Below, in pieces: positions 5,110 to 50,107 of a stretch of DNA of 64,000 nt. Source of the DNA: an uncultured Gammaproteobacteria bacterium (lineage in GTDB: Bacteria; Patescibacteriota; Microgenomatia; Levybacterales; UBA12049); assembly GCA_964637955.1 (NCBI GenBank), contig CAZWXQ010000006.1, positions 26,926-90,925 on the forward strand. Direction: 5' to 3'. Every line of letters starts with the position of its first letter. Within the stretch, counting starts at the first letter, position 1. Made by a program: the position numbers and the translations under genes. The notes below the pieces were generated by a model. That model was not told the origin of the DNA, did no database searches, and saw only the letters and a list, made by a program, of their open reading frames with translations.

Positions 5110-5189
5110 CCTCTGGTCAATCTGATAAGTAACTCAAAACTCACAAGTTCGTTAAGAGTTACTAACCAGATTAATTATGAATTAGAAAT

Positions 5190-15649: not shown

Positions 15650-15976
15650 GTGCCTTTCTCTTCGATCTCCCTAAATTAGAGTGATCCAAGAGAAAGGTGA
15701 ACAGGAAGGTGGGTAGCATACAGCTACAAAGTTGCGTCGTTGGACGCAGCTCCACTAACTGGATCGCCTGTAGGTTTCTACACAATCGCCGCTAATTTTG
15801 GCAACTATGTCTATTCCTACTGGGAAACCAGCCTTTCTCAGGTATTGTGCAGAACATGCACATTCTCTGCTTGCGCAGCTAGGTCAGATACCTCCAACCT
15901 TTTCCTTACCTCCCAGAGGTAAGAGGGCGTACGCCGAACGGCGTACTCTAAACCCTCTCCCTCGGAGACGGCGTGC

Positions 15977-16837: not shown

Positions 16838-16930
16838 CGGATCCTCCTTTCGAGGAGTGGGTGGTCATAAGACCCCAACCGGAACGATCCCTCAGGACCG
16901 AAGAACGGTATTCAGGTCTAGACCGGTGGT

Positions 16931-18145: not shown

Positions 18146-18437
18146 GGGAGAGAGTCTCCTTGTTGTGTGCGAGTGGATGCGTCCGACTCGGTTGATGGGG
18201 TGGGTAGCCCTGGGTTTTGATTCCCTGGACACCTCCTTGGTTGGAGAGCTTCTTGACGACCTTTCTTTCGTCTGGATTGGTTGGGTTGGCCGATTGACTG
18301 GGTAGAGAGCTGAATAGACGTGATGTCCACTCATCTCTTAAGTTAAGCCCATTCGAGGCAACGATTTCTAGCACTGTTGCTAGCACGTATCGCCTGAACT
18401 TAACTCATAACTAACCCCCAGAACTCGCGCAGCATAT

Positions 18438-18550
18438 GAATTTTCAATTTAAAATTTTCAATTTTCAATGAATTTTCATTTGTTTAATTTTTAAATTTTA
18501 AACATTTGGATTTCATTTGAAATTTGAAATTAAAAATTAATAATTCTTGT
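18438..18550. repeat. AT-rich intergenic repeat family (AATTTTCAATTTTAAATTTTTAATTTTCAT...AAATTTTAAACATTTGGATTTCATT), copy 1
   Basis: Nearly identical to the copy at 36941-37045; related copies at 28285-28355, 37755-37830 and 39420-39530. Confidence 0.6.
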
Positions 18551-27920: not shown

Positions 27921-28284
27921 TGTATTTACAATTATTGCTTTTTAAAAGTTTTTACTATATACTGCAATTGGTGCCCATGGAAACTTCATAAGTTCTCTGG
28001 GGAAAGAAAATGTTGTTCTCAGAGAATACCTCAGATACATACTATATCATCTCAAATCGAGAGTTTTTGTTTTGTTTTCAAAATAGAAACTTGTAGAAAA
28101 ATACTCGTTTTCCCAATTAATGGGATATTGCGAGGAAAGTGAGCCCAGTGCTTAGATCAAAGATCTAAGTATAAGTAACTCTAAAGCTCACTCTGTTCGC
28201 TAAAGAGTTACTAATACTAAAGTATAAGATTTTACTAATCTTTTTCTTCGAAAAAGAAAGCAAATCTAAAAAGGAGGTGAAAAA

Positions 28285-28355
28285 TTAATTTTCAATTTTA
28301 ATTTTCAATTTTCAATTAATTTTGAATTTTGAATTTTAAATTTTAAATTCGAAAA
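28285..28355. repeat. AT-rich repeat family copy 2 (AATTTTCAATTTTAATTTTCAATTTTCAATT...)
   Basis: Immediately upstream of 28357 ATG. Preceded by an AGTATAAG...hairpin...TCTAAAAAGGAGG module resembling the 5675-5745 unit. Confidence 0.5.
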
Positions 28356-31053: not shown

Positions 31054-34000
31054 TCAATTTATAAGAATCCAATTAAAAGGAACTGATTTCTCAATTGCTT
31101 TAGATAACCCAACGGAAAACGATTCTCCAGGGACTTGTCTCAGTAGATATACGCTCTGATTTGGGATGCTAGTTCTTGGAGTGATATATATTAGTGAATC
31201 CTTGGTGACTAAAGGATTTCTGATAGTTAGTTCATTTTTATAAGGCATTATGTCTGCAGTTCCTGCTGATCCTGTGGCTATTACCTCAGTTTCGCTTACG
31301 GCCAAGGCTTTATGTATAAAGCTAAGATTTAGCTTATTAAAAGTCCCTGATCCTGAAGCTTCTACGTCACCCTTATAATTAAATGTTAATACTGCTGAGC
31401 CCGTGCCAGTTTTAAATTCAATTTTGGACTCGTTTATATCATCAGATTTAAAGTCAAATATAAGATCACGACCGGGGATTGGAGCAATTATATTTGCCAA
31501 AAGTTCGCCATTAACCTGCGCATTTTTAGCAAAGTATGCGTTTCCTCCTACTTTTAGATTTCCTTCAGTATCAAATTCTACAAGGCCTCCTGCGATGGAG
31601 ACACCTCCTTGTCTTAAGGGTTGAAGTTCAAGGTTTCCTCCGAGAACATTTATGCTTCTTCCAGCAATTGAAAGCTGTGCGCCTACGAATAGTCTCTCGG
31701 CAATATTTGCTTCATAGAAGCTGGTTTGACCCCATGAAACGAGACTTTCCGTAAAGGTTCCTGAGCTTGCGCTAAATCCGGCAATATCATTTGAGCCATT
31801 AGCAGATGCCAAGTTTGTAGTAGAAGCGGATTCACTACTATTATAATAGTAGTTATTAGAAATATAAGTGTTACTTGCTGAAGAAGAGGATAGGTTAATT
31901 CCTTGAAGCTTGGCCAAGGCTTCTTCAGAAAGATCTAGTTGGTCAGCTATGATTTTGTCTGCTCTAAGGGTTCCTGAAATGCTCGCATCGTTTGTTTGTA
32001 ATGAGTTTGAGGCTAGATTGCCTGAGAAGCTGGCATTTCCTTCTGCGTCAATTGAAGCTATGGCTGAATTTGAGGCATTAAAGACTTCAACCTTTGAAGA
32101 CTTATCGCTTGTCGGCAATTTGATTACAAGTTTTTCTCCAGACTTAGGCTTGATAATATCTGACTCAATGATAGGTGAGGAAAGTGCGATTTGTTTTTGG
32201 CCAACTCTCTCGTCGACTATACTATATATATAGTCCCTAATATTTTTCCCTGCAATTGTAATATCTTCACTAGCGATTGCCAGTGTATCAACTGAAAGAT
32301 TTTCAATGTGGGCTACTATTATATATGCGCTACTTACCGTCAGTCTTCCGAGCTCTAGATATCCAGCTTTTATGTTGGCTGCGAAAAGATCTGAAAATGC
32401 CTCAACTTTAGTTATTGGTAGATCATCATAGGTTATTCCGAAGCCGTTTTCTTGATTTGGAGTAATATTGAGTGAATCTGCGCGAGTAATGAATTTTTCA
32501 CTACTATTATAAGTAGCTTTCACAAATATCATTACTCCATCCTGATTTTCATCCCAATCTTCAAGTGCTTGGCCTATGACTGGTCCAGGATCTGTTGCTC
32601 TCATTATTTTTCCGGGAGTACTTGATGACGTTACATAGTCACCTTGAAAAATTTTGCCATTTTCATTGCTTGCCTTAACGATGATTCTTCCGCTAAGCGC
32701 AACAGGAACTTGTTTTTGTTCTCTGTATTGATTTCCATTAAAGCCTCCGAGTAAAAGGCCAGGAGCTGTTGATATTGCTCCAATTGCGCGTGGGTCATAA
32801 GGAGTTGAGCTTCTTTTCACAAAAACACCTCTTTGAGGATCCATAGTTACGACTTCGCCTGCTGTTAAGCTGGTGTCATATGTTGGATAATTCTCAGCCA
32901 CATCATAAACACTGGTAGCCGTGGAGGATGAGTAGATTACCCCTTCAGAATTATTGTCATTGTTACAATCCGAATCACTTCCAACACAGAGTCCACCACC
33001 TGAGATTTGAACTTTTGACTCGGGGTTAACTGTTCCTATCCCAACATTACCACCATTTCCATTATTTGACATGACTATTAGATTGCCTGCAATTGTCGCT
33101 GTCGGGAGGTTAGTGCTAACATTTATGATCCCAAATTTGGCGGAAGAGGTGGAATTTCCCCCAACTAAGAAGTCATTTGTAGAATTACTCAAAAAAACCG
33201 ATCCGAGCGATTGGTTAAGGTTTGAGTTTTGTGATCCCGATGAGCAAGGTGCCCAAGTTGGTGAGGATCCATTTGAAATAAGACATAATCCGCTTGCTCC
33301 AATTGAAAGTCTGTTTAATCCATTTGAATTATTAGCATAGAGCATATCACCTGAATTGTAACTTGTGATTCCAGTTCCGCCAAAATTTACGCCAAGTGAA
33401 TTATTCACGCTCCATATGCCTTGATTAATTACTGGTACGCCAGTGGAGGAGGAAGTGTTTAGTCCAGTTCCTCCATAAGTGTTTGTGATAAGTCCAGCTT
33501 TCCATGATCCGGTATTTATGGTTCCATTTGTAATGCCAAGTCCATTAATGTTTCCAGAGGTTAAAATATTTCCACCGTTATCAACTAAGAATTTTGTTAT
33601 CGCTCCAGTCGATGCAATTATAAGATCCCCGGTCGAGTTTTGGTTAATACTTAAAATAGCTTGTCTCCCAGAGGTTCCATTTACGAGAAGCATATCTTCG
33701 ACTAAAACTGCTCCTTGTACCAGAGAATCGCTGTTTGATGTATTTTTAATTCCTTTTCGTATGTCAATCGAACCTGAGCCATCTGGTGAGAGAATTATGT
33801 CGCCATTGGTTTGCGACGTCGTAGAGAGAACTAGTGTTTTTCCTGAGATAGTAAAAGTTCCACCGGTTGCTTGAAAAGTCGGACTAGCATTTCCACCAAT
33901 AGTCAAATTTCCAGATGAGTTTAAGGAGAGTAGAACATTTGAAGTCTCTGAAGAGCTAGTAATTGGTTCAAGCCCTTGAACTGTTTCTGAGTTTTGAGAA

Positions 34001-35490
34001 TATGCAACAGTGGCGATTGGTTGTCTAGGAGTTAGTTCTTTTGTTTCATCGACTGTTATTCCCAAAAAGAGGGAAGGATTCTCGGAGAAAAGATTTTGAG
34101 GGATTGGTGTGTTTTTCCCCAAAACTACATTAAAAATTCCATCAGCATTTGGAGTAGCCGGAATTACTTCTTGCCAAAGAAGAGCAGAGCCAGATGCTAC
34201 TGCGTTTTTATAAAGCCCCATTCTTAGATTTGTTTCATAATTTATAGCTTGTCCACTGGCGTCTGTTATTCTTCCTTGGAAAGTAAGCACTCTTGAAGCA
34301 GTTGAAGGATTAGAGCCTAATACTGATAGACTTTTTTGATTTACTGAATTTACTCTTGATAAAAGTAGGTATGAAAATAAAATCACGGTCAGCATAAGAA
34401 GAGAAAGGTGAAAATAGGAAACAAATGTATATGAATGATATCTTTTGTACCAATTTGGTCTTGAATATCTACTAATGTGGATGATTTTTTTATGAACGGG
34501 CATTCCTTCGGTTGAAATGCTTGAAGGAGAATAGGTAGATTTAGATATGTTTTTGACTGAAAAATTATTTTGAGTATTAGCAAATGTATTAAATGTTGAT
34601 TTTGCGTTTTGTTCAAAGACTGGTTTTCCCTTAGCGATCCAAATAGCCTTATCAGCTTGAGATAAAGCGGCAGCAAAAGGGGTAACCAGTAGAGTTTCTG
34701 CCGCTAATTTTAGGCCTATATTTGATTTTTGGGCTATTCTAACCGGGGGAATACTAGAATATTTGATATCCTTTGATACATTTTCTTCAGTTAAATTTGG
34801 GGTAAAAGCGGGTATTATTAATTTATCGTCTAGCCTCGATTCGTTTAGCACTTGAATATTTGATCTGATAAGTTCGTGCTCAGTCGCCCAATTTGAGTAT
34901 CTTCGCAGAGATGAAAGCTTTCTATTAACAGAAGCAGGGGAGAGAAGTAGTGAATTTAGAAGATAATTTTTAAATTCATTTATTGAATTATTATTTACAT
35001 TATTTAAGGCTAAGCTAGCTTTGCTGTTAGCATTTGGAGCGTCTATTATGCTAGCCTCAAGCCAGTTTTTGTACTGTTTTAAGTCTATGATATAGTTTTT
35101 TATAGTAAGATTAGATGCCTTTTCTGTGTATAGATAATTTTTAAATTCTCTTATTCTCCACGTGTCTTGATCAATTTCACGATCAATTTCAATTTTAGCC
35201 TCAAATGGAGATTGTGAAACAATGCCTTGAGAATGAAGGAACGTAAAAAATTTACGAAGACTTGAGATGTTTCTTTCAACTGAGGACGCGGAATAGATTG
35301 AAAGTGAGGCTAATTTGAAGCTTTCTATTAATTCATAATTAATTTCGAGCGGATTAAAGCCCATATTAAATTGCTTTTCATACCATTTAGTAAACCTATT
35401 CACATCTGATACATAGTTTTTCACGGTAACTTTTGAAGCTGGGTGGCTTTGATTGAGTAAATAGTCTCGAAATTGTTCAGATAAGTTCAT
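31054..35490 (-). CDS. Giant (1478 aa) surface protein: N-terminal triple tyrosine-recombinase-type SAM-like (core-binding) modules, one TM helix, Gly/Ser/Thr-rich extracellular repeats, C-terminal domain shared with 1..5109
   Basis: aa 5-95 FRDYLL...VTVKNYVSDVNRFTKWY...SSVERNISSLRKFFTFLHSQGIV resembles XerC/D N-terminal domain. Two further partial copies (EFKNYLYTEKASNLTIKNYIIDLKQYKNWL; EFKNYLLNSLLLSPASVNRKLSSLRRYSNWA). TM YTFVSYFHLSLLMLTVILFSYLLL. No recombinase catalytic domain. Confidence 0.7.
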   Translation of the reverse strand: MNLSEQFRDYLLNQSHPASKVTVKNYVSDVNRFTKWYEKQFNMGFNPLEINYELIESFKLASLSIYSASSVERNISSLRKFFTFLHSQGIVSQSPFEAKIEIDREIDQDTWRIREFKNYLYTEKASNLTIKNYIIDLKQYKNWLEASIIDAPNANSKASLALNNVNNNSINEFKNYLLNSLLLSPASVNRKLSSLRRYSNWATEHELIRSNIQVLNESRLDDKLIIPAFTPNLTEENVSKDIKYSSIPPVRIAQKSNIGLKLAAETLLVTPFAAALSQADKAIWIAKGKPVFEQNAKSTFNTFANTQNNFSVKNISKSTYSPSSISTEGMPVHKKIIHISRYSRPNWYKRYHSYTFVSYFHLSLLMLTVILFSYLLLSRVNSVNQKSLSVLGSNPSTASRVLTFQGRITDASGQAINYETNLRMGLYKNAVASGSALLWQEVIPATPNADGIFNVVLGKNTPIPQNLFSENPSLFLGITVDETKELTPRQPIATVAYSQNSETVQGLEPITSSSETSNVLLSLNSSGNLTIGGNASPTFQATGGTFTISGKTLVLSTTSQTNGDIILSPDGSGSIDIRKGIKNTSNSDSLVQGAVLVEDMLLVNGTSGRQAILSINQNSTGDLIIASTGAITKFLVDNGGNILTSGNINGLGITNGTINTGSWKAGLITNTYGGTGLNTSSSTGVPVINQGIWSVNNSLGVNFGGTGITSYNSGDMLYANNSNGLNRLSIGASGLCLISNGSSPTWAPCSSGSQNSNLNQSLGSVFLSNSTNDFLVGGNSTSSAKFGIINVSTNLPTATIAGNLIVMSNNGNGGNVGIGTVNPESKVQISGGGLCVGSDSDCNNDNNSEGVIYSSSTATSVYDVAENYPTYDTSLTAGEVVTMDPQRGVFVKRSSTPYDPRAIGAISTAPGLLLGGFNGNQYREQKQVPVALSGRIIVKASNENGKIFQGDYVTSSSTPGKIMRATDPGPVIGQALEDWDENQDGVMIFVKATYNSSEKFITRADSLNITPNQENGFGITYDDLPITKVEAFSDLFAANIKAGYLELGRLTVSSAYIIVAHIENLSVDTLAIASEDITIAGKNIRDYIYSIVDERVGQKQIALSSPIIESDIIKPKSGEKLVIKLPTSDKSSKVEVFNASNSAIASIDAEGNASFSGNLASNSLQTNDASISGTLRADKIIADQLDLSEEALAKLQGINLSSSSASNTYISNNYYYNSSESASTTNLASANGSNDIAGFSASSGTFTESLVSWGQTSFYEANIAERLFVGAQLSIAGRSINVLGGNLELQPLRQGGVSIAGGLVEFDTEGNLKVGGNAYFAKNAQVNGELLANIIAPIPGRDLIFDFKSDDINESKIEFKTGTGSAVLTFNYKGDVEASGSGTFNKLNLSFIHKALAVSETEVIATGSAGTADIMPYKNELTIRNPLVTKDSLIYITPRTSIPNQSVYLLRQVPGESFSVGLSKAIEKSVPFNWILIN

Positions 35491-36028: not shown

Positions 36029-36973
36029 TTACTTTATTCTGTTTTTTAACTTTGCAGCTCTTATAAGCCAAGTAAGTATAGTTATCAGAGAAACTGTAAC
36101 TAGTAGACCTTTTACTGGCAATGCGAAAAATACTTTTGATTCGTGTAGTAGGGGGCCATTTTCAGAAATTGCCACATTAAGATCAGCCTTATATATTCCT
36201 AGAAGAAAGTTTTCATTCCAGGCTAACTTGCCGTTTGAGTTAGCTATAATTCTGCTCGAGTTTTCTAGTATCGTGGTTGGTTCAATTTCGACATTTCCTA
36301 CAGTTTGGCCAAACATGTTTTTTATGACTAAATTTCCTTTTGAAGTAACAAAATGCTTGCTGGTATTACTTATTTCTAATTCAGCTTCAACTGGACCATT
36401 TGAAACAAATCGGGGTATGGTAAATTTGGAAATAGCTCCGGTTGATTTATCATCTGATCCAACAGTAAGAAGAAGATTTACGCCTAAGCCTGCTTTATTC
36501 AAAACTATATTTGTCTTAGCTTCGCCAGAAGCTGTTTGAGATAAGAAAATAGCTGTGAAATAATAATCTCTTTGTTCAACTTCATCAGTAACCGGGATCA
36601 TTAGCAAGAGATTTTTCCTTTGAAAAGGTGGCACTGTGAGCTCGCTTAAGGGTTTTCCCTGGTCTGATATAGTTACTTTTTCAAAGAAAGATTTATATTC
36701 TTCTGAGAGTTCTGGATCAAAATTAGGTTCTCCGCTAAAATCAGAATTAGCCTTGAATGGGCGAAGAAAGATATTGTAAGTTATATTTTGATCCGATGAA
36801 TTATAAATATTTATCGGAGCTTTCACGACAGAAGGTGAGCTTGCGCGAATCTTAATTACGCTTGGGTTTACGCTTGTGGAAAAATTTTGAGCACTAGCGT
36901 TTTGTGCAAATGTAGTTAAAAGCATAAGCGCAATTAGAAGTATAATTTTCAATTTTAAATTTTTAATTTTCAT
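36029..36973 (-). CDS. Secreted protein with C-terminal TM anchor (hypothetical)
   Basis: N-term MKIKNLKLKIILLIALMLLTTFAQNASA is a signal peptide; first 10 codons encoded by AT-rich repeat. C-term VKGLLVTVSLITILTWLIRAAKLKNRIK. Confidence 0.55.
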   Translation of the reverse strand: MKIKNLKLKIILLIALMLLTTFAQNASAQNFSTSVNPSVIKIRASSPSVVKAPINIYNSSDQNITYNIFLRPFKANSDFSGEPNFDPELSEEYKSFFEKVTISDQGKPLSELTVPPFQRKNLLLMIPVTDEVEQRDYYFTAIFLSQTASGEAKTNIVLNKAGLGVNLLLTVGSDDKSTGAISKFTIPRFVSNGPVEAELEISNTSKHFVTSKGNLVIKNMFGQTVGNVEIEPTTILENSSRIIANSNGKLAWNENFLLGIYKADLNVAISENGPLLHESKVFFALPVKGLLVTVSLITILTWLIRAAKLKNRIK

Positions 36974-37045
36974 TCAATTATTAAATTTTAAAACATTTAG
37001 ATTTCATTAATAATTTTAAATTAGTAATTTTAAATTATTATTAGC
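36941..37045. repeat. AT-rich repeat family copy 3 (overlaps start codon of 36029..36973)
   Basis: ATAATTTTCAATTTTAAATTTTTAATTTTCATTCAATTATTAAATTTTAAAACATTTAGATTTCATT matches 18438-18550. Confidence 0.6.
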
Positions 37046-37049
37046 AAAG

Positions 37050-37793
37050 CTAATAACTAGGAATAGCTATGAAAGTAACTGTATTTGAATAGGGGCCTCG
37101 AGGCTGAGATGAGGAAACATTCACTTTGTAAGTAATCGAAGCTTCCTGGCCTAAGCTAGAGCTCTCAGAGAGCATGGTGGTTGGAGTCTCATCTTTTGAT
37201 GCATCTGAGAATTGTTTGAAATAATTTTCTCTATCAAAGCTAGTGTCATTTTCCACGCAGCTAGATTTACTAGAATCACATCTATATCCAAATCCATAAG
37301 TAAGAGTGCTGTCCCATTTGTCTGAAGTATAATCTGTGCATTTTCCATTATCACAAGTCGTGTCTGGGATTTTCACGCCTTTTTTAGCTTCGGTTAATTC
37401 ATGATTTTCAATTCCTGTAACTTTATAGCCAGCCTTATTCATGTTTTTAACTTTCAAAATATTGCTTCTGGTCACTGGATTGGTTGGGGAAAGTGAGCCG
37501 AAATCGATATTAGTGCTTGAAATAGAAAAACTGAATGGGTTATTTTCTGGAGAATAGTTTTTTCCCAAATCAACTTTATAGTTCACGCCTGAAAGCTCAT
37601 TACCCGTATTAGATGTGTCTATATCGATATTATTTGATGTAGTCGGGTCTGCAAAAGAATTGATGTTTTCAATCTGAACTTTATACATCGAATTCTGAGA
37701 TGACTGGGCACGAACCAAAGGCATAGAAATAAACAAATAAGCAAATAAACAAATAAGCAAATAAATTTTTAATTTTAAATTTTTAATTTTCAT
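37050..37793 (-). CDS. Secreted hypothetical protein (247 aa)
   Basis: N-term MKIKNLKLKIYLLICLFAYLFISMPLVRA signal peptide, again starting inside an AT-rich repeat copy (37755-37830). Cys-containing middle region. Confidence 0.5.
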   Translation of the reverse strand: MKIKNLKLKIYLLICLFAYLFISMPLVRAQSSQNSMYKVQIENINSFADPTTSNNIDIDTSNTGNELSGVNYKVDLGKNYSPENNPFSFSISSTNIDFGSLSPTNPVTRSNILKVKNMNKAGYKVTGIENHELTEAKKGVKIPDTTCDNGKCTDYTSDKWDSTLTYGFGYRCDSSKSSCVENDTSFDRENYFKQFSDASKDETPTTMLSESSSLGQEASITYKVNVSSSQPRGPYSNTVTFIAIPSY

Positions 37794-37906
37794 TGAAATA
37801 TTAATTCAAAATTTACAAATAATAATTTTCCGTTAATTAAATCGTAGCACAAAAGTAATATAACCTGCCATGAAGTCAGTTTCGCTGCAATTTAAAGACC
37901 TATAGT

Positions 37907-37935
37907 TTGACATTTACCTTAAAATATGGTAGGAT
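37907..37935 (+). promoter_or_regulatory. Sigma70-like promoter TTGACA-17-TAGGAT upstream of long structured leader of high-GC gene 38286..38729
   Basis: Consensus -35, 17-nt spacer, TAnnnT -10, all in AT-rich DNA just before the GC jump. Confidence 0.4.
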
Positions 37936-38028
37936 ATAGATCGCTTTTTGAGGCTAAATTAGCCATTTGCGGTTAAAATTAGCATCATTAAGTTTATTTA
38001 TTCTGAGAGGTTAATTTTTCTCAGATCT

Positions 38029-38130
38029 GGTCGCTTAAAGCGGCCTCGCACCTTAACAGATTGTCTAGTAGCTTCTATCTGAATTTATTCAGATTTAGAA
38101 CTACTTGATGCCGATACTTAATGTATCGGT
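38029..38130 (+). promoter_or_regulatory. Conserved ~100-nt hairpin-rich leader element, copy A (second copy 46288-46392)
   Basis: GGTCGC-TTAAAG-CGGCC hairpin, CTCGCAC, AGTAGCT..TCTGAATTTATTCAGATTTAG..CTACT, then CCGATAC-TTAATG-TATCGG hairpin. Aligns position by position with 46288-46392. Confidence 0.45.
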
Positions 38131-38285
38131 ATGGAATGAAAATTATAAATTATTGCTCATGTAAAGTGAGGACAATGGTTTAGTTATTAGTAAAAATAGC
38201 TGATCTTTTGTCCTTACTTTGCTTTGGCCGCAAGGTCACATAGAAGAGTTCGCTCGACTATGAGAGCAGAAAGCAGAGAAAGAAC

Positions 38286-38729
38286 ATGTCTGAGGAGCAG
38301 AAAGCATGCAAGCAGAAAACTCAGACAAGCTGGAGCACAGGCATGTCACTTCTTAGTGTTCGCCAGAACAGCGAGCTTGAGTTCGCTCGAGCCGTGAGGA
38401 AGATCCTGGAAAAGGCCATCAAGGAGAAGGTGACGATCACCCGCATCGTCAACGATCCCGAGTGGGTCATCCGGATCATCCGTGTCGATCAAGAGGGGGG
38501 GGTTTCCTCCGTCAGGTTCGAGGCGGTCTTCTACTCCGTGAGTCCTTTCGCCTACGACAACAGGTACTTCAAGTACCTCAGCCTAGTCATCACGGATGAC
38601 AATGGCTTCGGGGGCTCAGCGGAGTTCAAGTTCACTGACGATCAGATGTTCGTGACAGTTGGCTCATTGTGGCCGTCCACGCATCCGATCCAGCTGAACC
38701 TGACGTTCGACGACGACAATTTCCGCTAG
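38286..38729 (+). CDS. Hypothetical protein (147 aa), high-GC island 2
   Basis: GC3-rich codons (atc, ttc, aag, gag, gac), unlike neighbours. Contains an in-frame G8 homopolymer at 38495-38502. Confidence 0.6.
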   Translation: MSEEQKACKQKTQTSWSTGMSLLSVRQNSELEFARAVRKILEKAIKEKVTITRIVNDPEWVIRIIRVDQEGGVSSVRFEAVFYSVSPFAYDNRYFKYLSLVITDDNGFGGSAEFKFTDDQMFVTVGSLWPSTHPIQLNLTFDDDNFR

Positions 38730-39419
38730 GCCATAGGGGCGAAAAGGGGAGTCTGCTCTCTCTCCTCAGCTCCGGGTACGGAACTCTTAGTGAGGTATCG
38801 CGTGTGCAGAACGCTACCGATAATATCGTCAAGCTCGCGCGCTTCTTGAGGCGGTTATCCGTCTTGGCTTCGCAGTTCTGACGATCGGACGTGGTCTTCG
38901 TGCAGCCTACAAGCTGCTCGGCAAACTTTAGCTCGAAAGGAGCGGAAGGTGAAGAAGCCTCAGAATCCGAAGAGGATCCTGGTTCGCAGTTGGCCTAGGC
39001 CTCCTGGTCTCATTAGGCCATGGGTAGATCCCAGGATCGCTCCCAGCACCGGCAAGCAGAAGAAGTCTGTTGTCATCAAGTTCTGAAAGGAGCAGATTAG
39101 GGCAAGTAGCTCAATTCATTCCGCAATCATCCTAAGGGGAAATTCAGCCCTATGGATACAACTCGTGCTCTAAAAGGCATGGGTGAAACTGCACAGGTAC
39201 TGGGACGAAAGTCTTGGAAATAGAGACTAGATCTGGCGATCTTAAGGTTGTGCTGCATCGCTGCACCCCCTCGAGTTCTCCTCATTTTTTCTCCTTAACA
39301 CCTGTGTTTTTTCATGCCCATTTATAGTCATTAGTTAATAGGTATTAGATATTAGGCAATAGATTTAAAGCTAGTCACTAGTATCTAGTAACTAATAACT
39401 CAGGAGTGCTATACTTCAA

Positions 39420-39530
39420 GTATAATTTTCAATTTTAAATTCTCAATTTTCAATCAAGCTCAAAATTTTAAAATTAAAAATTAATACATTTATATTTCAA
39501 TGAAAATTAAAAACTCTAAATTAAAAATTA
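39420..39530. repeat. AT-rich repeat family copy 5 (inverted pair; supplies leuS start codon and first ~10 codons)
   Basis: AATTTTCAATTTTAAATTCTCAATTTTCAATCAA... then ATGAAAATTAAAAACTCTAAATTAAAAATT. Confidence 0.5.
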
Positions 39531-41950
39531 ATTCACGCTATTTTCCGCACAAAATTGAGGCTAAATGGCAAGAGAAATGGGCGAGTGATAAGATTTATGA
39601 GTTCAAATCTGATTCCTCAAAAGAAAAATATTATAACCTAGTAGAGCTTCCTTATCCTTCAGGAGATCTTCACTTAGGACATTGGTTTGCTTTTGTTCCG
39701 CCGGATGCTCACGCGCGATACATGCGTATGAATGGTAAAAATGTTCTATTTCCGAATGGGTTTGATGCATTTGGATTACCTGCTGAGAATGCTGCAATAA
39801 AACGTGATATCCATCCCAAAGATTGGACTATGAAAAACATCGAAACTATGAGGGGACAATTTGAAACCATGGGAACTATGATTGACTGGACTCACACCAC
39901 TAAAACGTGTCTTCCAGATTATTACCGCTGGAATCAGTGGATTTTCTTAAAGATGTTTGAAAAGGGCATTGCATACAGAGGAAAAGCGCTATCAAACTGG
40001 TGCCCAAAGGATCAAACTGTATTAGCTAACGAGCATATTGAGAGTGGAAAATGCTGGAGATGTGGAGAAGTTGTTGAGCAAAAAGAAGTAGAGCAGTGGT
40101 TCTTGAAGATCACAGATTTTGCCGATAAACTTCTTTGGGAGAATACTGATGAAAAGATCAGTAATGGAGTTGATTGGCCAAAAAGTGTCCGAGAAGCTCA
40201 GAATAATTGGATTGGAAGAAAAGATGGTATAAAGATTAAGCACGAGGTCGTAGGAACAGATCTTTCATTTGAAACTTTTTCAGCTTTTCCTGCATGGTTA
40301 TGGGCAGATTCATTCATAGTCATTGCTCCCGAACATCCACTGGTTAAAGAGCTTGTAAAAGGAACAGATAGCGAAAAAGAAGTTTTGGAATTTGTAGATG
40401 AAATGTCAAAGGAAACTGAGCTGGAAAGAAAAGAGACTACAGAAAAAAAAGGTGTTTTCACAGGAAGATATGCAAAGGATCCATTTGGCGGTAAAGATAT
40501 GCCTATTTGGCTTGCAAATTTTGCATTGCTAAATTTTGGGACAGGTATAATTAGATGCTCTAGCCATGATCCAAGAGATTTTGAGTTTGCCACAAAGTAT
40601 AAATTAGATCTTAAAGAGGTAGTAGATAGATATAATGATCAGCCCGCAAATGCTCACGACAATAAAGGTGTTCTTAAAGATTCAGGGCCATTTAGCGGTC
40701 GAAAAGTTAGCGAAGTAAGAGAAGAGGTGCTAGATTGGATTGAAAAAGAAGGAATTGGCGTTAGATTTGTAAATTATCATCTTCATGATTGGTCTATTTC
40801 AAGACAGCGCTATTGGGGAACACCTGTGCCAATTATTCATTGTGAAAAAGATGGAGATGTGCCAGTACCATTTGATCAGCTTCCGGTTGAGATTCCTTAC
40901 GAAGTAGATTATACACCACAGGGAAAGCCTCCTTTGGCATCAGCGGAAGATTGGTTAAATGTTGAGTGTCCTGTTTGTCACGGGCCGGCTAAGAGGGATG
41001 CCGAGACTTTAGACACTTTCTTTGATTCTGCTTGGTACTATTATCGTTACGTTTCGCCTCATTTTGAGGAAGGACCGTTTGATAGCGAGCTTGTCAAAGC
41101 GAGCATGCCTGTAAATGTGTATTTTGGCGGAGGAGAACACACTCTTGGTCACACGCTGTACGCGCGCTTTTTCACAAAGTTCTTTAAGGAGTTAGGATTA
41201 GTAGATTTTGATGAGTTTGCGCTGAAGCGAGTTCAACATGGAGTGATTCTAGGGCCTGACGGAAACCGCATGAGTAAATCAAAGGGAAATGTAGTAAATC
41301 CAGATGATGTAGTTCGTGAATACGGAGCAGACACCGTCCGTTTATATCTGTGCTTTATGATGCCTTATGAGGCTACAGCACCTTGGTCAGTAGGCGCAAT
41401 CTCAGGTATATTTAGATTCCTCAAAAGAGTTTGGGATTTGCAAAATAGTTTGGGGGAAAATATTGAATTAAATTCAGAAGATGAGTATTGGTTAAATAAA
41501 ACTGTTAAGAAGGTTGGAGAAGATCTTGAGGAGATACATTTTAATACCGCTGTTTCAACTCTCATGGAGTGGTTAAATTATTTATCCTCCAAGAAAGAGA
41601 TCTCAAATCTTGAGTATAAAACATTTTTGAAGCTACTTGCTCCTTTTGCGCCACATATTACAGAAGAAATATGGAGCCAGATAGATGATGAATTTCCAGT
41701 AAGCTCTATTCATCTTGAATCATGGCCCGAGTTTAATCAGGCTAAGATAGTTCAAGATGAAGTAAATATTGCAGTACAGATAAATGGCAAAGTTCGTGGA
41801 GCGATAAAAGTAGAAAGCTCAAAAATTGAATCTCAATCAGATATAGAGGAGATTGTAAAAAATGATCAAAATATATCAAAATATCTAGGAGGACAACAAA
41901 TTAAAAAAATAATTTATATAAAAGGAAAAATTATTAGCTTTGTTATTTAG
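39500..41950 (+). CDS. leuS: Leucyl-tRNA synthetase
   Basis: FPHKIEAKWQEKW N-terminus, HIGH-type motif (PYPSGDLHLGHWFAF), CP1 editing region, KMSKS (RMSKSKGN). N-terminal MKIKNSKLKI comes from the repeat element. Confidence 0.9.
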   Translation: MKIKNSKLKINSRYFPHKIEAKWQEKWASDKIYEFKSDSSKEKYYNLVELPYPSGDLHLGHWFAFVPPDAHARYMRMNGKNVLFPNGFDAFGLPAENAAIKRDIHPKDWTMKNIETMRGQFETMGTMIDWTHTTKTCLPDYYRWNQWIFLKMFEKGIAYRGKALSNWCPKDQTVLANEHIESGKCWRCGEVVEQKEVEQWFLKITDFADKLLWENTDEKISNGVDWPKSVREAQNNWIGRKDGIKIKHEVVGTDLSFETFSAFPAWLWADSFIVIAPEHPLVKELVKGTDSEKEVLEFVDEMSKETELERKETTEKKGVFTGRYAKDPFGGKDMPIWLANFALLNFGTGIIRCSSHDPRDFEFATKYKLDLKEVVDRYNDQPANAHDNKGVLKDSGPFSGRKVSEVREEVLDWIEKEGIGVRFVNYHLHDWSISRQRYWGTPVPIIHCEKDGDVPVPFDQLPVEIPYEVDYTPQGKPPLASAEDWLNVECPVCHGPAKRDAETLDTFFDSAWYYYRYVSPHFEEGPFDSELVKASMPVNVYFGGGEHTLGHTLYARFFTKFFKELGLVDFDEFALKRVQHGVILGPDGNRMSKSKGNVVNPDDVVREYGADTVRLYLCFMMPYEATAPWSVGAISGIFRFLKRVWDLQNSLGENIELNSEDEYWLNKTVKKVGEDLEEIHFNTAVSTLMEWLNYLSSKKEISNLEYKTFLKLLAPFAPHITEEIWSQIDDEFPVSSIHLESWPEFNQAKIVQDEVNIAVQINGKVRGAIKVESSKIESQSDIEEIVKNDQNISKYLGGQQIKKIIYIKGKIISFVI

Positions 41951-43937: not shown

Positions 43938-45179
43938 ATGTCTCCAAAATTTATCTATTTGATAGTAGCCTGTCTTTTTATTTTGCTATCTATAAGAATA
44001 GCTTTATTTTATTCTTCTGTCGAAAAATATCCTCCAGGCCAGATAATCAGTTGGCAAGCAAAAGTGCTAACACAGCCGAAGCTAAGCGTTCGTGGTCAGC
44101 AGTTTTCAGTATCTATGCCAAATTCGCAAAGAGTTTTGCTAAATTTGAAGCTAATTCCTCAGGTTTCGTATGGAGATAGTCTTTTGATAAGAGGTAAAGT
44201 GGATTATATAGAAGTCGGAGAAGGAGATTTGATCGCTTTTATGAATTATCCTGAGTTTAGGATAGTTGAGGTAGGCAGGGAAGGCAGTTTCATAATTAGA
44301 ATTCGAGAACACATTATCAGCTTTTTTAATTCATCTCTTCCTCAAACATATTCATCTCTAATGCTTGGAATAGTTTTTGGCATAAAAGAGGAGATGCCTG
44401 CTGATTTTTACTTGGATCTTCAAAAAACAGGACTTATGCACGTAATAGCTGCATCCGGAATGAATATAACCATGCTTGGGGGATTTTTGAGTTTGATTTT
44501 TGCCATGTTTTTTAGACGACAAGTAGCACTTATTCTTACAATTCTTGGAATCATTCTTTATGCCGTGCTTGCAGGCCTTGAGCCGTCCATAGTCAGAGCT
44601 TCGATTATGGGTATTTTGGTTTTTCTAGCCCAGCTTACAGGGCGTCAGAATAGCAGTTTCCTGGCACTATTCTTTGCTGCTTTCTTAATGCTTATGCGAA
44701 CGCCTAGTCTAATTCTTGATGTTGGATTTCAATTGTCGTTTTTAGCAACATTTGGTTTGGTTTATCTTAGGCCTATATTTGCATTTATTCCAGGCATTAA
44801 AAGGTTTTCAGAAAAGTCAGTAATTGTTGAAGATTTGACCACTACTTTAACAGCTCAGATTTCGACTTTGCCAATTCTTCTGGCCAATTTTGGAAGTTAT
44901 AGTCTCTGGTCAATTCCAGTAAACGCGATTGTACTTTGGACAGTTCCAATACTAATGATAATAGGTGGAGCAGCTGCGATAATTTCTTTTCTGATTGAGC
45001 CTATGGCAAGAGTGGTATTATACTTTTCTGTACCATTTTTGCTTTATTTTACAAAAATCGTTGAGGTTTTTGGAAGTTTTCCAGGTCAGATAAATATAAA
45101 AAGCATGTCATTAATGATAATCTCAGGCTATTATTTAATAATTCTGGCAATAATTGTCTATTTTAGAAATAAAAAGTAA
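43938..45179 (+). CDS. comEC: ComEC/Rec2 DNA-uptake channel, membrane competence domain (no fused lactamase domain)
   Basis: Polytopic. GLMHVIAASGMNITMLGGF competence-domain signature. Confidence 0.8.
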   Translation: MSPKFIYLIVACLFILLSIRIALFYSSVEKYPPGQIISWQAKVLTQPKLSVRGQQFSVSMPNSQRVLLNLKLIPQVSYGDSLLIRGKVDYIEVGEGDLIAFMNYPEFRIVEVGREGSFIIRIREHIISFFNSSLPQTYSSLMLGIVFGIKEEMPADFYLDLQKTGLMHVIAASGMNITMLGGFLSLIFAMFFRRQVALILTILGIILYAVLAGLEPSIVRASIMGILVFLAQLTGRQNSSFLALFFAAFLMLMRTPSLILDVGFQLSFLATFGLVYLRPIFAFIPGIKRFSEKSVIVEDLTTTLTAQISTLPILLANFGSYSLWSIPVNAIVLWTVPILMIIGGAAAIISFLIEPMARVVLYFSVPFLLYFTKIVEVFGSFPGQINIKSMSLMIISGYYLIILAIIVYFRNKK

Positions 45180-45215
45180 TAGTTTGATATTGTCCTTATT
45201 CAATAGAATTCATGT

Positions 45216-46082
45216 ATGAAGAAGGTATATTTTTTTATTTTCACAGCTTCTATTTCTCTATTAATTCTAATTATATTCGTATTATTTAGCTTCAATGATA
45301 AAAAGCTTCACATAATAATGTGTGATGTAGGGCAGGGTGATGGGATTTTGATTGATACCCCTGATAATGCCCAAATTCTAATAGATGGAGGTCCTGATAA
45401 GAGTGTTCTTGAATGCTTATCAAAGCATATGCCGTTTTGGGATAGAAGTATTGAGGCTATAATCCTTACTCATCCACACGCAGATCACTATTTTGGCCTG
45501 ATAGATGTAATAGAGCGATATAAATTGAATGGGTTTTATACCGAAGCCGTAAAAACGAATTCTGAGGGTTTTGATTTGCTTGAAGCTAAATTAGCAAGTA
45601 AAAAAATGAGTGCTAAAGATTTGAGCGTAAACGATAATTTTAGAAATAAGTCTGGAGTAAATATAAAAATATTATGGCCGAAGCTAGAAAATTCTAAAGA
45701 AATAGATCAGAATAGCGCAGATATAGACCTAAATGGATTAAGCGTAGTAGCCTTGCTAACGTACGGGAATTTTTCAATGCTTCTTACAGGTGATGCTGGA
45801 GAAAATGTCATGAATCAATTAGAAAATGTGGCTGGCGATATCGATATATTAAAAGTCCCACATCATGGCTCCAGGACAGGAATGGATGATGGATTCCTAA
45901 AGTTGGTAAAGCCGGAAATAGCTTTGATCTCGGTTGGACAGAAGAATAAATATGGTCATCCAGCAAAGGAAAGTTTGGATCTACTCAAAAAGAACAATAT
46001 TAAGATTTTTAGGACTGATAAGAACGGGACGATTGAGATTATATCTGATGGGAGAAGCTATAAAGTTAAATCTTCAAAATAG
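45216..46082 (+). CDS. ComEC C-terminal-type metallo-beta-lactamase-fold protein encoded as separate ORF
   Basis: HIIMCDVGQGDGILID, ILTHPHADH, KVPHHGSRTG. Same reading frame as comEC but separated by three stop codons in 36 nt. Confidence 0.75.
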   Translation: MKKVYFFIFTASISLLILIIFVLFSFNDKKLHIIMCDVGQGDGILIDTPDNAQILIDGGPDKSVLECLSKHMPFWDRSIEAIILTHPHADHYFGLIDVIERYKLNGFYTEAVKTNSEGFDLLEAKLASKKMSAKDLSVNDNFRNKSGVNIKILWPKLENSKEIDQNSADIDLNGLSVVALLTYGNFSMLLTGDAGENVMNQLENVAGDIDILKVPHHGSRTGMDDGFLKLVKPEIALISVGQKNKYGHPAKESLDLLKKNNIKIFRTDKNGTIEIISDGRSYKVKSSK

Positions 46083-46094
46083 GCCCCATAGTCG

Positions 46095-46124
46095 TTGACT
46101 ATTAAATTTGCCTTGTGATAAAAT
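46095..46124 (+). promoter_or_regulatory. Sigma70-like promoter TTGACT-18-TGATAAAAT (extended -10-like) upstream of ~500-nt structured leader
   Basis: Located in AT-rich DNA 13 nt after the MBL gene stop. Confidence 0.4.
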
Positions 46125-46287
46125 TCATTCTTGTGTGCTTGATGCTAAAAGCTTCACTCTTCGGATTTGCCCGTAGAATTGAGGATTAGATAAAGTATGC
46201 AAATTTGGTTTCAAATTAAATATTGAAACTTCGTCCCGCGTTTATGCGTGGGTCTTTGTCTCTTGGACATCCGTCCTGGGACTCGTT

Positions 46288-46392
46288 CCACTTTAAAGAG
46301 TGGAGCATCGCACATTAAAATGTTATTAAGTAGTAGCTGTCTGATTTATTCAGATTTAGTTCTACTAATCCTACATATTTAAAATATGCAGG
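46288..46392 (+). promoter_or_regulatory. Conserved hairpin-rich leader element, copy B
   Basis: CCACT-TTAAAG-AGTGG hairpin, CATCGCAC, AGTAGCTGTCTGATTTATTCAGATTTAGTTCTACT, CCTACATATTTAAAATATGCAGG hairpin. Further hairpins (GGACCCCTCTAGGTCC, CTGAAGCTACGCGCTTCAG, GTCAGTCTTAAAGCTGAC) before the ORF. Confidence 0.45.
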
Positions 46393-46631
46393 ACAGAATT
46401 TTAACCTAGATGGGTACATCTTGATAATTAGCTTTTTGTTAATTATTAAAATGGACCCCTCTAGGTCCTCATCTATTTAACCTCATCCCATACTGAAGCT
46501 ACGCGCTTCAGAATAAAAGTCAGGGGCATCGTCCACTGACAAAAGTCCATTTGGCCGTAGTGAGTCAGTCTTAAAGCTGACTTGTTGGCATCATCCGAAG
46601 GGTCAATAGACCCTCAAGGGGAGTTACATCC

Positions 46632-47123
46632 ATGGGTTCTTCGGTCACTCCGATCCATTCTCGTGCGCTCAGCGCATGGGTCGTGTTCCGCGTCGAGGGC
46701 TCTGACAAGCCTTTGGTGGAGATCAAGGCGTACGGTTCCGACCACGCGACCCTGAAGGCTGACGCCATCCGCCAGATCAAGGCTTGCATCGAGAGCAAGC
46801 AGAAGTTCGAGCTTCTCGATGACGTGACGGTCTACCAAGACGTCATGGTCTGTGGGACGGTCCCGCCCGGCAACACGGAGTTCTGTCTCCTGGTTCGCTT
46901 CAGCGGCACCATCCACGACATCGTCGAGGCAGCCGGGCCCCAGCTCGAGAGGCTCTTCAAGCAGCTTCCGCAGCTCGCCGAGAAGGACGTCGATCCGCAT
47001 CACCTGACGCTGCTTCGCAGGGTCATCGACAACGCGACCACCGTCGACGAGGCGCAGGCCTGGTTGACTGAGCGCCGTCTCGGCAACAAGGCGCGAACGC
47101 GCAAGCTGGCGACCGGTCGCTGA
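46632..47123 (+). CDS. Hypothetical protein (163 aa), high-GC island 3
   Basis: SD AAGGGGAG 8 nt before ATG. GC3-rich balanced composition. The antisense 188-aa ORF is Arg/Leu/Asp-rich frame shadow. Confidence 0.6.
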   Translation: MGSSVTPIHSRALSAWVVFRVEGSDKPLVEIKAYGSDHATLKADAIRQIKACIESKQKFELLDDVTVYQDVMVCGTVPPGNTEFCLLVRFSGTIHDIVEAAGPQLERLFKQLPQLAEKDVDPHHLTLLRRVIDNATTVDEAQAWLTERRLGNKARTRKLATGR

Positions 47124-48082
47124 TCCCTTCTGGCATCTGGCTGGACTCAACATCTGGCAAGTTGCCGAGTCCCATCGCACCGAAAGTGCGAGCTAGTTCA
47201 CCCCGAAGGGAGTGAATTGGATGAAGACATCATTCCACCCGCCGAAGGATTTGCTGCGAGCCGCCAAGGCCAATTTCGTGGACTCTCGTGTTGTCCATCG
47301 AATCCGCGATCATTCGGTGAGAAAGTGCCCAAGGCACTGCAACATCGCCTGGTACACGGCGGCTCCACTCAGGCCTGGTGAAATCCCAGCCCAGGATCTG
47401 GCTCGCATGTCGCGAGACTACATGTCCAGATCTGGGTAGATCGGGGTTTGAGGTCGGCTGATCGTCCGGAAGCGCTTGAGCATGTGCTCGAGAACAGGGT
47501 TTCAGTCCCACAAGCGCCAAATCCGGTTTCGGAGAGGTAAAGTTGCCAAGGAGGTGACATAAATTCTGTAACAGAAAATGTGTGAGGTAGTGCTATGGAC
47601 TCGAAAGAGTAAAAGAGGAGGACAAGGATGTTCTCGCCAAGCCAGAACTTTAGCGTTCTGACCCAGCGAGACTTTCTCGTTTCTTTTTCCCCATAGCACT
47701 ACTATCGCACCCTTTATATAAAAAAATTATTTCTCTAATTTTCTTCTAAAATCATAAAATTAATAAAATATTTCCATACCATAATTCTCCGGATTAAAGA
47801 CTTCCTTTGGTCGCCCTACATTTAATTTGGGCCTTCCTTTGGTCGAACATGCAATAATTTCCAGGACTCCATTCAGTAGCAAAATGAGCAAAAATCCCTA
47901 ATTTTTTTCACAAAATCTTGGCAGGTGATATAGTTTGAATGCTAGCATTTAGGAAGCTAAAAGGTAGTAAATAATTCCAAAAAGGCGATGTGAAAAATTA
48001 AATATTTACAATATATGATTTATTATTTACCATTTTTGTTATTGTTAAATCGTAAATGATAAATGGTATATGATATTTATCT

Positions 48083-48817: not shown

Positions 48818-49034
48818 AAACGAATTATGATCTGAAGCAATTAAGAAGAATTGTGAAATATGTATGAGTTTTGTCGGAAAAGATGATTAAAAGAAAAATG
48901 CATACAGGAAAGGTGAAAATAGGGTTTGGGGAGGGGGCTAAATGAGCCGTCATTACTACCGCACTTGGGTAGACTAGACAGGTCAATGCTCCTCCCATTC
49001 CCTTACGCCTTCCTGACGCTCTTGACCCGCAGGT

Positions 49035-49910
49035 CTAGTGCGCCTTCACCGCGTTAACGGCTCGGATGAGTCGTGCGTTCTTGGGGCCACCATCCATGCG
49101 AGTTCGCATGAAGAGGTCATAGACCGCACGGTCGTAGATCGTCCTGTCTAGAACGAGCTTGAACTTCTTCGAAGACACCATCGAGCCGGGATCTCTGTGC
49201 GTGTAAGGCCAGGTGGACAGTTCATCGTTCGTGAACCAGTTTGTTGGATCGATGAACTCGATCGGCGGGCACGCGTGGGCGTAGCCGTACCGAACGATGC
49301 GGTCGCTGGTCAACTTGTCCTTGATCGTGTCCAGGCAGTAGGTGTCCGGGTATCCGGTCAGGTAGATGGCGATCTCCTTCAGCGTTGCCGTCGGAGACAA
49401 GAAGGGCGGTACGCCCAACATGAACCAGCCACCAGGCCGATTGAACCAGAGGACGAGACCCTCGTTGGCTGCGTAGAACAGCTCACCGCGGGAATACCTG
49501 CGTGAGATGCCGGGGGCTCCGAGTACCGCGTTGCGGTAGTTGAAGACCAGGTTCGGCATCTCGTCCGGTGCGTACCACGACGCGAAGCAGAAGTTGGCAT
49601 CGATGACGACGTTCTCGACCGTGACGGTCTTGAAGTCGCGCTTGATGCGCTTCTTCGGCTTGATCAGCGTGTCGCACAGCGCCGGATCGTCGTGGATGAC
49701 CAGGATCGGATGGCCACTCGTCAGTGTCACCTTCTGGACACCTCTTGCCACGTGGGCGCGGATTGTGTCGTTGGGTGTGCTGGCGCTAGCCACAGAACCG
49801 ACGATGAGGACCGCGGATGTCGCGATCAAGATCGAGGCTCCAAGCTTCCTGAGATTCACTGCGTTTCCTCCGAGTACTAGGCGATTCCTGAGACGGTTCG
49901 GCCTCGACAT
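49035..49910 (-). CDS. Secreted hypothetical protein (about 292 aa), high-GC island 4
   Basis: Start set at MSRPNRL... because the ORF-track ATG (50075) lies upstream of the predicted promoter. Signal peptide LGASILIATSAVLIVGSVASA. GC3-rich codons, several Cys. Confidence 0.6.
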   Translation of the reverse strand: MSRPNRLRNRLVLGGNAVNLRKLGASILIATSAVLIVGSVASASTPNDTIRAHVARGVQKVTLTSGHPILVIHDDPALCDTLIKPKKRIKRDFKTVTVENVVIDANFCFASWYAPDEMPNLVFNYRNAVLGAPGISRRYSRGELFYAANEGLVLWFNRPGGWFMLGVPPFLSPTATLKEIAIYLTGYPDTYCLDTIKDKLTSDRIVRYGYAHACPPIEFIDPTNWFTNDELSTWPYTHRDPGSMVSSKKFKLVLDRTIYDRAVYDLFMRTRMDGGPKNARLIRAVNAVKAH

Positions 49911-50034
49911 CAGTCGATGACGAACTCTTTCCTGTATGCGAATTGAAATGTGCTGTCGCGAGCATCTTTTTTCTCTGTCGATGTTTTCTCCAGATGAGCT
50001 TTGCAAAAAAGCGAGATTCTTTTGACGGCTGACA

Positions 50035-50062: not shown

Positions 50063-50107
50063 AACTATAGGTCAATAATTCAAGGCTAAAATGTTATATG
50101 ATACAAT

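Follow-up and report, generated by a model that had tools for sequence, protein, structure and literature searches.

A structured RNA-like element with three known copies in the leaders of GC-rich genes embedded in AT-rich bacterial DNA

The window considered here is the whole stretch of 64,000 nucleotides of contig CAZWXQ010000006.1 that was analysed. It is AT-rich for the most part (GC about 31-40%) and carries ordinary cellular genes, including those for LeuRS (39500-41950), ComEA, a histidine kinase with a response regulator and ArgRS (50108-51790), as well as a split ComEC (43938-46082) and two tRNAs. Four GC-rich islands, C, A, B and D, are embedded in this DNA (Table 1). The GC3 of their ORFs is 0.73-0.84 versus about 0.30 in the host genes, and because of this strong third-position bias we regard the island ORFs as real coding frames of foreign composition. 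No Pfam or PHROG matches were found for the ORFs of the four islands. Logan contigs from run SRR14271332, which were assembled independently, are 100% identical to the window over the junctions of A, B and D; therefore, these three islands are not assembly chimeras.

Several other features of the window were noticed. Two secreted proteins encoded on the minus strand of island C (15977-16837 and 16931-18145) share a repeated C-terminal motif, W.P.(S/W/R)C.PL. AT-rich repeats with an 8-nt period (AATTTTCAATTTTAAATTTT...) are located at many gene starts (18433-18545, 28280-28349, 36938-37036, 37758-37820 and 39414-39520), and the peptide MKIKN(L/S)KLKI opens three proteins, LeuRS among them. The long intergenic region 5100-5730, which comes after a giant ORF (46-5109), contains two structured repeat families, one of 85 nt (5429-5513 and 5637-5721, 78% identical) and one of 27 nt (at 5193, 5326 and 5544). 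A protein of 1478 aa (31054-35490, minus strand) has two N-terminal phage-integrase SAM-like domains, and no catalytic domain was detected in it. Directly past island A there is a 75-nt hairpin (39326-39400). The motif TTAGTTATTAG, with at most one mismatch, is enriched in the window (11 matches versus 2.7 expected), and its matches cluster in this hairpin, in the long hairpin H4 of copy A described below and at the edge of island C (18404).

Two of the islands, A and B, each contain a GC-rich ORF that an earlier note on this DNA had described as unrelated to the other. Comparison of the two agrees with this, and their GC3 values (Table 1) set against those of the host genes mark both as real coding frames. 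ORF A has no homologues among 5.8 billion proteins and no Pfam or PHROG match, and its structure model is unusable (pLDDT 42). For ORF B, HMMER was run exhaustively against 1.8 billion cluster representatives and revealed two homologues only, P0004 (41% identity) and P0005 (26%), to which a profile search added no further family members. The model of ORF B has an alpha/beta core of fair quality (pLDDT about 85 over residues 11-115), and its structural neighbours are weak and generic, none of them significant.

Table 1. Coordinates of the islands, predicted promoters, element parts and ORFs in the window.
Feature	Position	Strand	Description
Island C	about 15680-18430		GC-rich, embedded in AT-rich DNA
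CCTATAGT motif abutting -35 of unit A promoter	37899..37906	+	CCYATAGT scan
Predicted sigma70-type promoter of unit A	37907..37935	+	TTGACA-17-TAGGAT, TG-extended; consensus match
H1 of copy A	38029..38045	+	GGUCGC / GCGGCC, loop UUAAA; fold, covariance model
Spacer of copy A	38046..38066	+	Single-stranded, UCGCACCUUAACAGAUUGUCU; alignment
H2 of copy A	38067..38105	+	Outer stem AGUAG/CUACU, middle stem, inner UCUGAA/UUCAGA, 2-nt 3' bulge
H3 of copy A	38110..38130	+	GCCGAUAC / GUAUCGGU, loop UUAAU
H4 of copy A	38161..38222	+	62 nt, about 26 pairs, 6 G-U
Island A	about 38200-39300		GC-rich, embedded in AT-rich DNA
ORF A	38286..38729	+	147 aa, GC-rich orphan, GC3 0.77
CCCCATAG, left copy of possible 8-bp direct repeat flanking unit B	46084..46091	+	Overlaps CCCATAGT promoter-adjacent motif
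Predicted sigma70-type promoter of unit B	46095..46124	+	TTGACT-18-TAAAAT, TG-extended; consensus match
H1 of copy B	46285..46306	+	GUUCCACUU / GAGUGGAGC, loop UAAA
Spacer of copy B	46307..46328	+	AUCGCACAUUAAAAUGUUAUUA
H2 of copy B	46329..46366	+	Fold, covariance model, alignments
H3 of copy B	46369..46393	+	CCUACAUAU / AUAUGCAGG, loop UUAAA
H4 of copy B	46404..46466	+	63 nt, 7+4+3+12 pairs, three 1x1 mismatches; collinear with L036:137-198
Island B	about 46440-47700		GC-rich, embedded in AT-rich DNA
Rest of B leader	46467..46631	+	At least 3 further hairpins common to L036; identical 27-mer AATAAAAGTCAGGGGCATCGTCCACTG (46512-46538)
ORF B	46632..47123	+	163 aa, GC-rich, GC3 0.83
Structured 3' end of unit B	47580..47710	+	About 125 nt, z -7.3; 5' half conserved in L036
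Island D	about 48900-49990		GC-rich, embedded in AT-rich DNA

Both ORFs are preceded by long leaders, and the near-consensus sigma70 promoters that the earlier note placed before these leaders were recovered in a consensus scan, with 10 of 12 consensus matches and a TG extension. The leaders contain two copies of the same element at the sites that had been claimed for them, copy A at 38029-38130 and copy B at 46285-46393. In both copies the parts follow the same order, namely hairpin H1, a single-stranded GCAC-UUAA spacer, H2 and H3, and A and B also agree in how the element is oriented and ordered with respect to promoter and ORF. A sensitive blastn comparison aligned 38043-38105 with 46305-46366 (76% identity over 63 nt), which is the sole significant DNA similarity between the two loci, and a 16-mer, ATTTATTCAGATTTAG, is identical in both copies and has no other site in the window. 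Three hairpins are predicted per copy. The folding energy is -40.2 kcal/mol (z -4.8) for copy A and -34.1 kcal/mol (z -5.3) for copy B, none of 200 shuffles folded as well as either real copy, and the reverse strands of both fold worse.

A covariance model built from copy A only (R1) was run over the whole window on both strands with filters off. It scored copy B at 49.4 bits (E about 3e-9), and the next match in the rest of the window reached 15.9 bits; islands C and D are without a copy. Weak model matches at 5651-5716 and 28146-28242 proved to be different elements. Thus the presence of a shared element in A and B is confirmed, far beyond chance. A dimeric operator at the TCTGAAT/ATTCAGA palindrome was also considered and is unlikely, the spacing of the half-sites differing by 1 nt between A and B.

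A third copy was found outside the window. The homologue P0004 of ORF B is encoded on a contig of 1274 bp (L036) from an unrelated metagenome (JGI 3300079105), and the leader upstream of its ORF contains the element on the same strand as the ORF. R1 matches it at L036:16-125 with 33.8 bits. Conversely, a model made only of copy B and the L036 copy (R2) finds copy A at 54 bits (E about 2e-12) and has no other match beyond A, B and L036 in 128 kb of searched strand. Detection is thus reciprocal, and the family has three members, two of them from one genome. The spacer consensus GCAC.UUAA.A..UU.U is kept in all three and is the best-conserved unpaired part of the element; exact matches to the spacer pattern in the window are limited to A and B. 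The ordered set of motifs described earlier is common to A and B, while the H1 loop is not kept in L036.

To describe covariation, the three sequences were placed in a model-fitted alignment, in which 96.6% of the cells pair and 16 of 31 pairs are changed on both sides, values that are biased towards pairing by the fitting. None of 500 shuffles reached these values, and partners slid by 1-3 columns paired at 27-46%. Because this alignment leans towards structure, the count was repeated for B and L036 aligned by MAFFT from sequence only, with helices taken from RNAalifold on a MAFFT alignment of the same leaders; here all 110 cells pair (slid controls 34-43%). Between B and L036, 17 stem pairs differ and every one of them remains paired, eight through changes on both sides and nine through a change on one side that is always wobble-compatible, and compensatory changes are present in all helices. 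In L036, H2 keeps its shape (outer stem, inner stem and 2-nt 3' bulge) with much of the stem sequence and the apical hairpin changed; H2 is nearly identical in A and B, which belong to one genome. The earlier proposal that stem sequences covary with structure preserved, and that this marks a functional RNA-like element rather than a recent duplication, is borne out by these counts, by the copy in an unrelated metagenome and by the lack of any Rfam match.

The element shows a strand bias. In addition to the difference in folding energy between strands, there are 13 G-U pairs in B/L036 and six in H4 of copy A, and A-C cells are absent from the B/L036 alignment. Because of the G-U pairs and the energy difference, the element would function on the plus strand, more likely in the form of RNA than of single-stranded DNA, the latter of which would give the same strand bias.

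The earlier estimate of about 100 nt for the extent of the element holds for the position and order of the three hairpins, while the module runs further 3', to a fourth, long hairpin (H4) of 62-63 nt and about 26 pairs located 3' of H3 in all three copies. H4 is clearly homologous between B and L036. H4 of copy A matches it in size and position; its covariance-model score against H4 of B/L036 is 11.4 bits (E 0.24), so that homology is weakly supported. From the end of the module to the start codon there are 63 nt in A and 165 nt in B and L036. The latter two have leaders that are collinear, structured and conserved up to the start codon, including a block identical at 27 of 27 positions. Folding showed the whole leaders of A (z -8.3) and B (z -8.9) to be exceptionally structured, but not that of island D (z +0.85) despite its shared promoter motif; the hairpin module is therefore an optional part. 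The unstructured leader of island D does contain a GCACATT match, which is no better than chance.

No expression platform shared by the leaders was identified (terminator, anti-SD pairing or SD-sequestering helix). Spacer/start-codon pairing suggested by RNAalifold amounts to 3 bp and is too weak to count. Upstream of the element, between the unit B promoter and H1, a terminator-like hairpin CCCGCGTTTATGCGTGGG with a T-rich tail was noticed at 46235-46252, which, judged from its sequence, might act as an attenuator or mark where a short transcript ends.

These properties of H4 bear on the possibility that the element belongs to a separate small RNA of about 200-330 nt, consisting of the leader up to H4 or cleaved there and acting in trans or on its own operon. 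In agreement with it, the part common to A and B ends at H4, beyond which the two leaders differ; H4 itself is long, nearly perfect and of constant size in the three copies, as would suit a processing site or a 3' end; and the near identity of H2 within one genome together with its difference in L036 is expected for a genome-specific partner. An excisionase-family (HTH_17) gene on L036 hints at a mobile-element setting. On the other hand, a U-rich tail follows H4 in B alone and is absent from A and L036; conservation and structure of B/L036 extend well past H4, up to the ORF; complementarity of H2 to the region after H5, seen in B, is lost in L036, so this pairing was discarded; and Rfam models, including those of phage antisense families, gave no match. 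The nearest known parallels are the leader-derived immunity RNAs, P4 CI RNA of the satellite phage and c4 RNA of P1/P7. Like them, the element is a structured RNA in a long promoter-proximal leader before the first ORF of a horizontally moving unit, and a processing step is plausible at its H4. It differs from them in having no sequence or model match, another hairpin architecture and ORFs unrelated to phage genes, and conserved complementary target sites were not found in its own transcript. On balance we consider a separate small RNA fairly unlikely, though it is one of the main rivals of a leader that acts in cis.

The excisionase-family gene just mentioned lies at 903-1112 of L036, 3' of the ORF B homologue; relatives of its protein were not found within reach, and the counterpart region of the window (47124-47580) contains no intact HTH_17 gene. 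The 3' ends of the two units are also related: B 47483-47615 matches L036 1153-1274. In unit B the structured 3' end (47580-47710) holds a terminator-like hairpin (47665-47681) and the right CCCCATAG copy, and its structure is closed by a perfect 12-bp stem (GTAGTGCTATGG/CCATAGCACTAC). Since leader, ORF and 3' end are all common to B and L036, the AT-rich leader is part of the unit and not host backbone. Comparison of the two units revealed that: (i) the mean column identity of H1-H4 is 84% versus 41% identity of the proteins, and (ii) the GC content is split alike in both metagenomes, H1-H4 having 31-38% and the ORFs 55-63% with GC3 of 0.77-0.83. Such a contrast between AT-rich leader and GC3-rich ORF, maintained across deep divergence and accompanied by so few ORF homologues, speaks against simple transfer, in recent times, from a GC-rich donor that is well sampled.

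The unit boundaries carry short motifs of their own. The motif CCYATAGT occurs exactly three times in the window (37899-37906 and 46085-46092 on the plus strand, 50064-50071 on the minus strand) and CCCCATAG only twice (46084-46091 and 47689-47696, where the composition changes on the left and on the right of unit B), counts that are not above chance, so that the positions alone, noticed after the fact, are striking. Each CCYATAGT is located 0-2 nt upstream of a -35 box, which in each case belongs to a sigma70-like promoter with a TG extension that is directed into island A, B or D; none was found at island C. Going by sequence, CCYATAGT may be a shared operator or boundary motif, and the CCCCATAG pair may be an 8-bp direct repeat, an att core or a target duplication. 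At the right end of island A a weaker CCCATTTATAGTC is present (39309-39321). The boundary motifs hint that the islands are co-regulated or represent inserted cassettes.

These motifs are relevant to the proposal that the element works as single-stranded DNA and would serve a small mobile cassette with GC-rich cargo as a site of recombination, a single-strand origin or an origin of transfer. The element occupies the AT-rich margin of islands that are foreign in composition, the window's only two CCCCATAG copies flank unit B on either side, CCYATAGT lies on the promoter side of three islands, and L036 encodes an excisionase-family protein. Strand-specific hairpins are, moreover, typical of attC sites and single-strand origins. 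Resemblance to integron cassettes extends to the short unit with one orphan ORF of foreign composition and to an imperfect, strand-specifically folding hairpin in which conservation is stronger for structure than for sequence. In contrast to integron cassettes, the units have their own promoters, the hairpins lie upstream of the ORF, and no integron integrase, attI, array or R''/R' core sequences were seen.

An attC site was rejected by reading of the H4 flanks in B and L036, the 5' ones (AATTTTAACC and ATTAAACC) misfitting RYYYAAC and no GTTRRRY following the 3' arm; an integron cassette was rejected as well, since no tyrosine-recombinase catalytic domain was found in the neighbouring ORFs and a promoter-like site belongs to each unit. 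The idea of a rolling-circle nick site at CTTGATA in H4 of B was dropped, since this sequence is not kept in L036 or A and there is no Rep gene. Several further observations speak against a single-stranded DNA site: no recombinase, Rep or relaxase was found in or beside the units, the stems contain many G-T or A-T pairs, weak ones in DNA, and the element is missing from islands C and D. The candidate repeats are located about 200 nt upstream of the element and not within it, and conservation through the whole leader to the start codon fits a transcript better. Such a site is thus unlikely, and the best candidates for a recombination core are the short CCYATAG repeats at the unit boundaries and not the hairpin element.

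The statement of the earlier note that the element belongs to no known class agrees with our searches: no Rfam match was obtained at gathering or permissive thresholds. With Rfam 15 at gathering thresholds the whole window gave the two tRNAs only, and permissive scans of 37800-38900, 46080-47900 and L036 remained at chance level (18 bits at most, E of 1 or more). A T-box leader was considered with regard to the LeuRS and ArgRS genes downstream; its model has no match at E up to 10 in one permissive scan and up to 1 in another, and 1.4-3.7 kb with other ORFs separate the element from these genes. IS110-type bridge RNAs and transposon guide RNAs lie beside a recombinase or nuclease gene (DEDD/Tnp, TnpB, IscB), and the element does not.

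Scans for the exact core in one genome per GTDB species, in JGI/ENA metagenomes and in IMG/VR yielded only chance matches, all of them inspected and without the AGTAG/CTACT and TCGCAC context, and IMG/VR scans with three conserved B/L036 blocks yielded nothing, or chance matches in coding regions. Searches of GenBank phages and PLSDB plasmids by blastn and tblastn with unit B, P0004 and the island C protein revealed nothing, and a full-text literature search retrieved no description of such an element. The only further copy beyond A and B, whose existence the earlier note had made a point to check, is thus that of L036.

Scarcity of copies is also relevant to the view that the element is an intergenic repeat (MITE, BOX or Correia type) peculiar to this genome and devoid of a dedicated function, which came to lie beside inserted DNA by chance. 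Pneumococcal BOX and Neisseria Correia elements are modular hairpin intergenic elements that are transcribed together with their neighbouring genes and can serve as substrates of RNase III, and the element resembles them in being modular, hairpin-forming and intergenic. Both copies found in 64 kb are intergenic, and other AT-rich repeats and hairpins abound between the genes of this genome. Unlike BOX and Correia elements, the element lacks terminal inverted repeats of its own, and no more copies of it were found in the window; its divergence is compensatory and not random decay, and in another metagenome a diverged copy has been inherited together with the same ORF family. We therefore rejected this class of repeat and regard the view as very improbable.

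Taken together, the data describe a new structured RNA-like family with three members and an unusual genomic setting. The earlier note had left its function between a cis-regulator, an att-like site and a small RNA; the evidence leans to a transcribed leader RNA. As is the case for cis-regulatory 5'-leader RNAs in general, the element lies on the coding strand between predicted start and ORF and has a conserved structure. A cis-acting leader is most economical because it accounts for this strand, for the position between promoter-like site and ORF, for the conserved structure and for inheritance with the ORF. From the conservation, the compensatory structure, the strand bias, this position and the linkage to the ORF across two metagenomes, we infer that the element is transcribed and acts in cis as the 5'-leader RNA module of a self-promoted gene unit, and likewise that it has a partner and that H4 has a role. 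This reading is tentative: we consider it quite possible and stop short of calling it probable.

According to this cis-acting leader model, H1-H3, the 21-nt GCAC-UUAA spacer and the 26-bp H4 would form the 5' module, about 180-200 nt long, of a long structured leader RNA that shares its transcript and a strong sigma70-type promoter with the GC-rich ORF; the promoter, the leader, the ORF and the structured 3' end would be inherited as one unit. The module would act in cis on its own transcript. A trans-factor might recognise the invariant spacer and the genome-specific H2, and the two-turn H4 duplex might be a site of double-strand-specific processing or binding, of the RNase III type. Spacer, H2 and H4 together could then set the stability, read-through or translation of a compositionally foreign mRNA. 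The module stands before two unrelated ORFs, and the likeness of H2 in A and B with its difference in L036 would fit either adaptation of H2 together with a partner that is specific to the genome or gene conversion acting on the two copies.

With regard to read-through, the processive antitermination leader RNAs, HK022 putL/putR and EAR, offer a comparison. There, too, similar stem-loop modules (two in the present case) follow strong promoters and precede unrelated genes, with structure shared by covariation, and read-through of a foreign C-rich transcript is conceivable by analogy. The element differs in that it starts 85-150 nt past the predicted start site and not immediately, terminators farther downstream are not known to be bypassed, and no similarity to these RNAs was detected; the parallel is a pure analogy.

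A broader idea, which we think quite improbable, is that the element is the RNA part of an undescribed small self-promoted cassette in an AT-rich reduced-genome bacterium, its leader serving capture or mobility, or else the expression of foreign transcripts. A CCYATAG repeat at the boundary, a sigma70 promoter, a structured leader rich in AT, an orphan ORF that is GC-rich and evolves fast, and a structured 3' end would make up such a cassette, and the leader may make the foreign transcript expressible, for example by processive antitermination. If this is true, the contrast in composition between leader and ORF would be a designed feature and not a sign of recent transfer. Apart from this idea, the element, if the findings hold, adds a new structured RNA family whose non-coding leader is far better conserved than the protein that it precedes, with AT-rich leaders beside ORFs of GC3 near 0.8 in two independent metagenomes, which is hard to reconcile with simple recent transfer. 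The promoter-adjacent motif and the boundary repeats provide handles on the islands as a regulon, a cassette system or both, and the pattern points to a dedicated means by which this poorly known lineage of AT-rich bacteria would carry or express orphan, fast-evolving genes.
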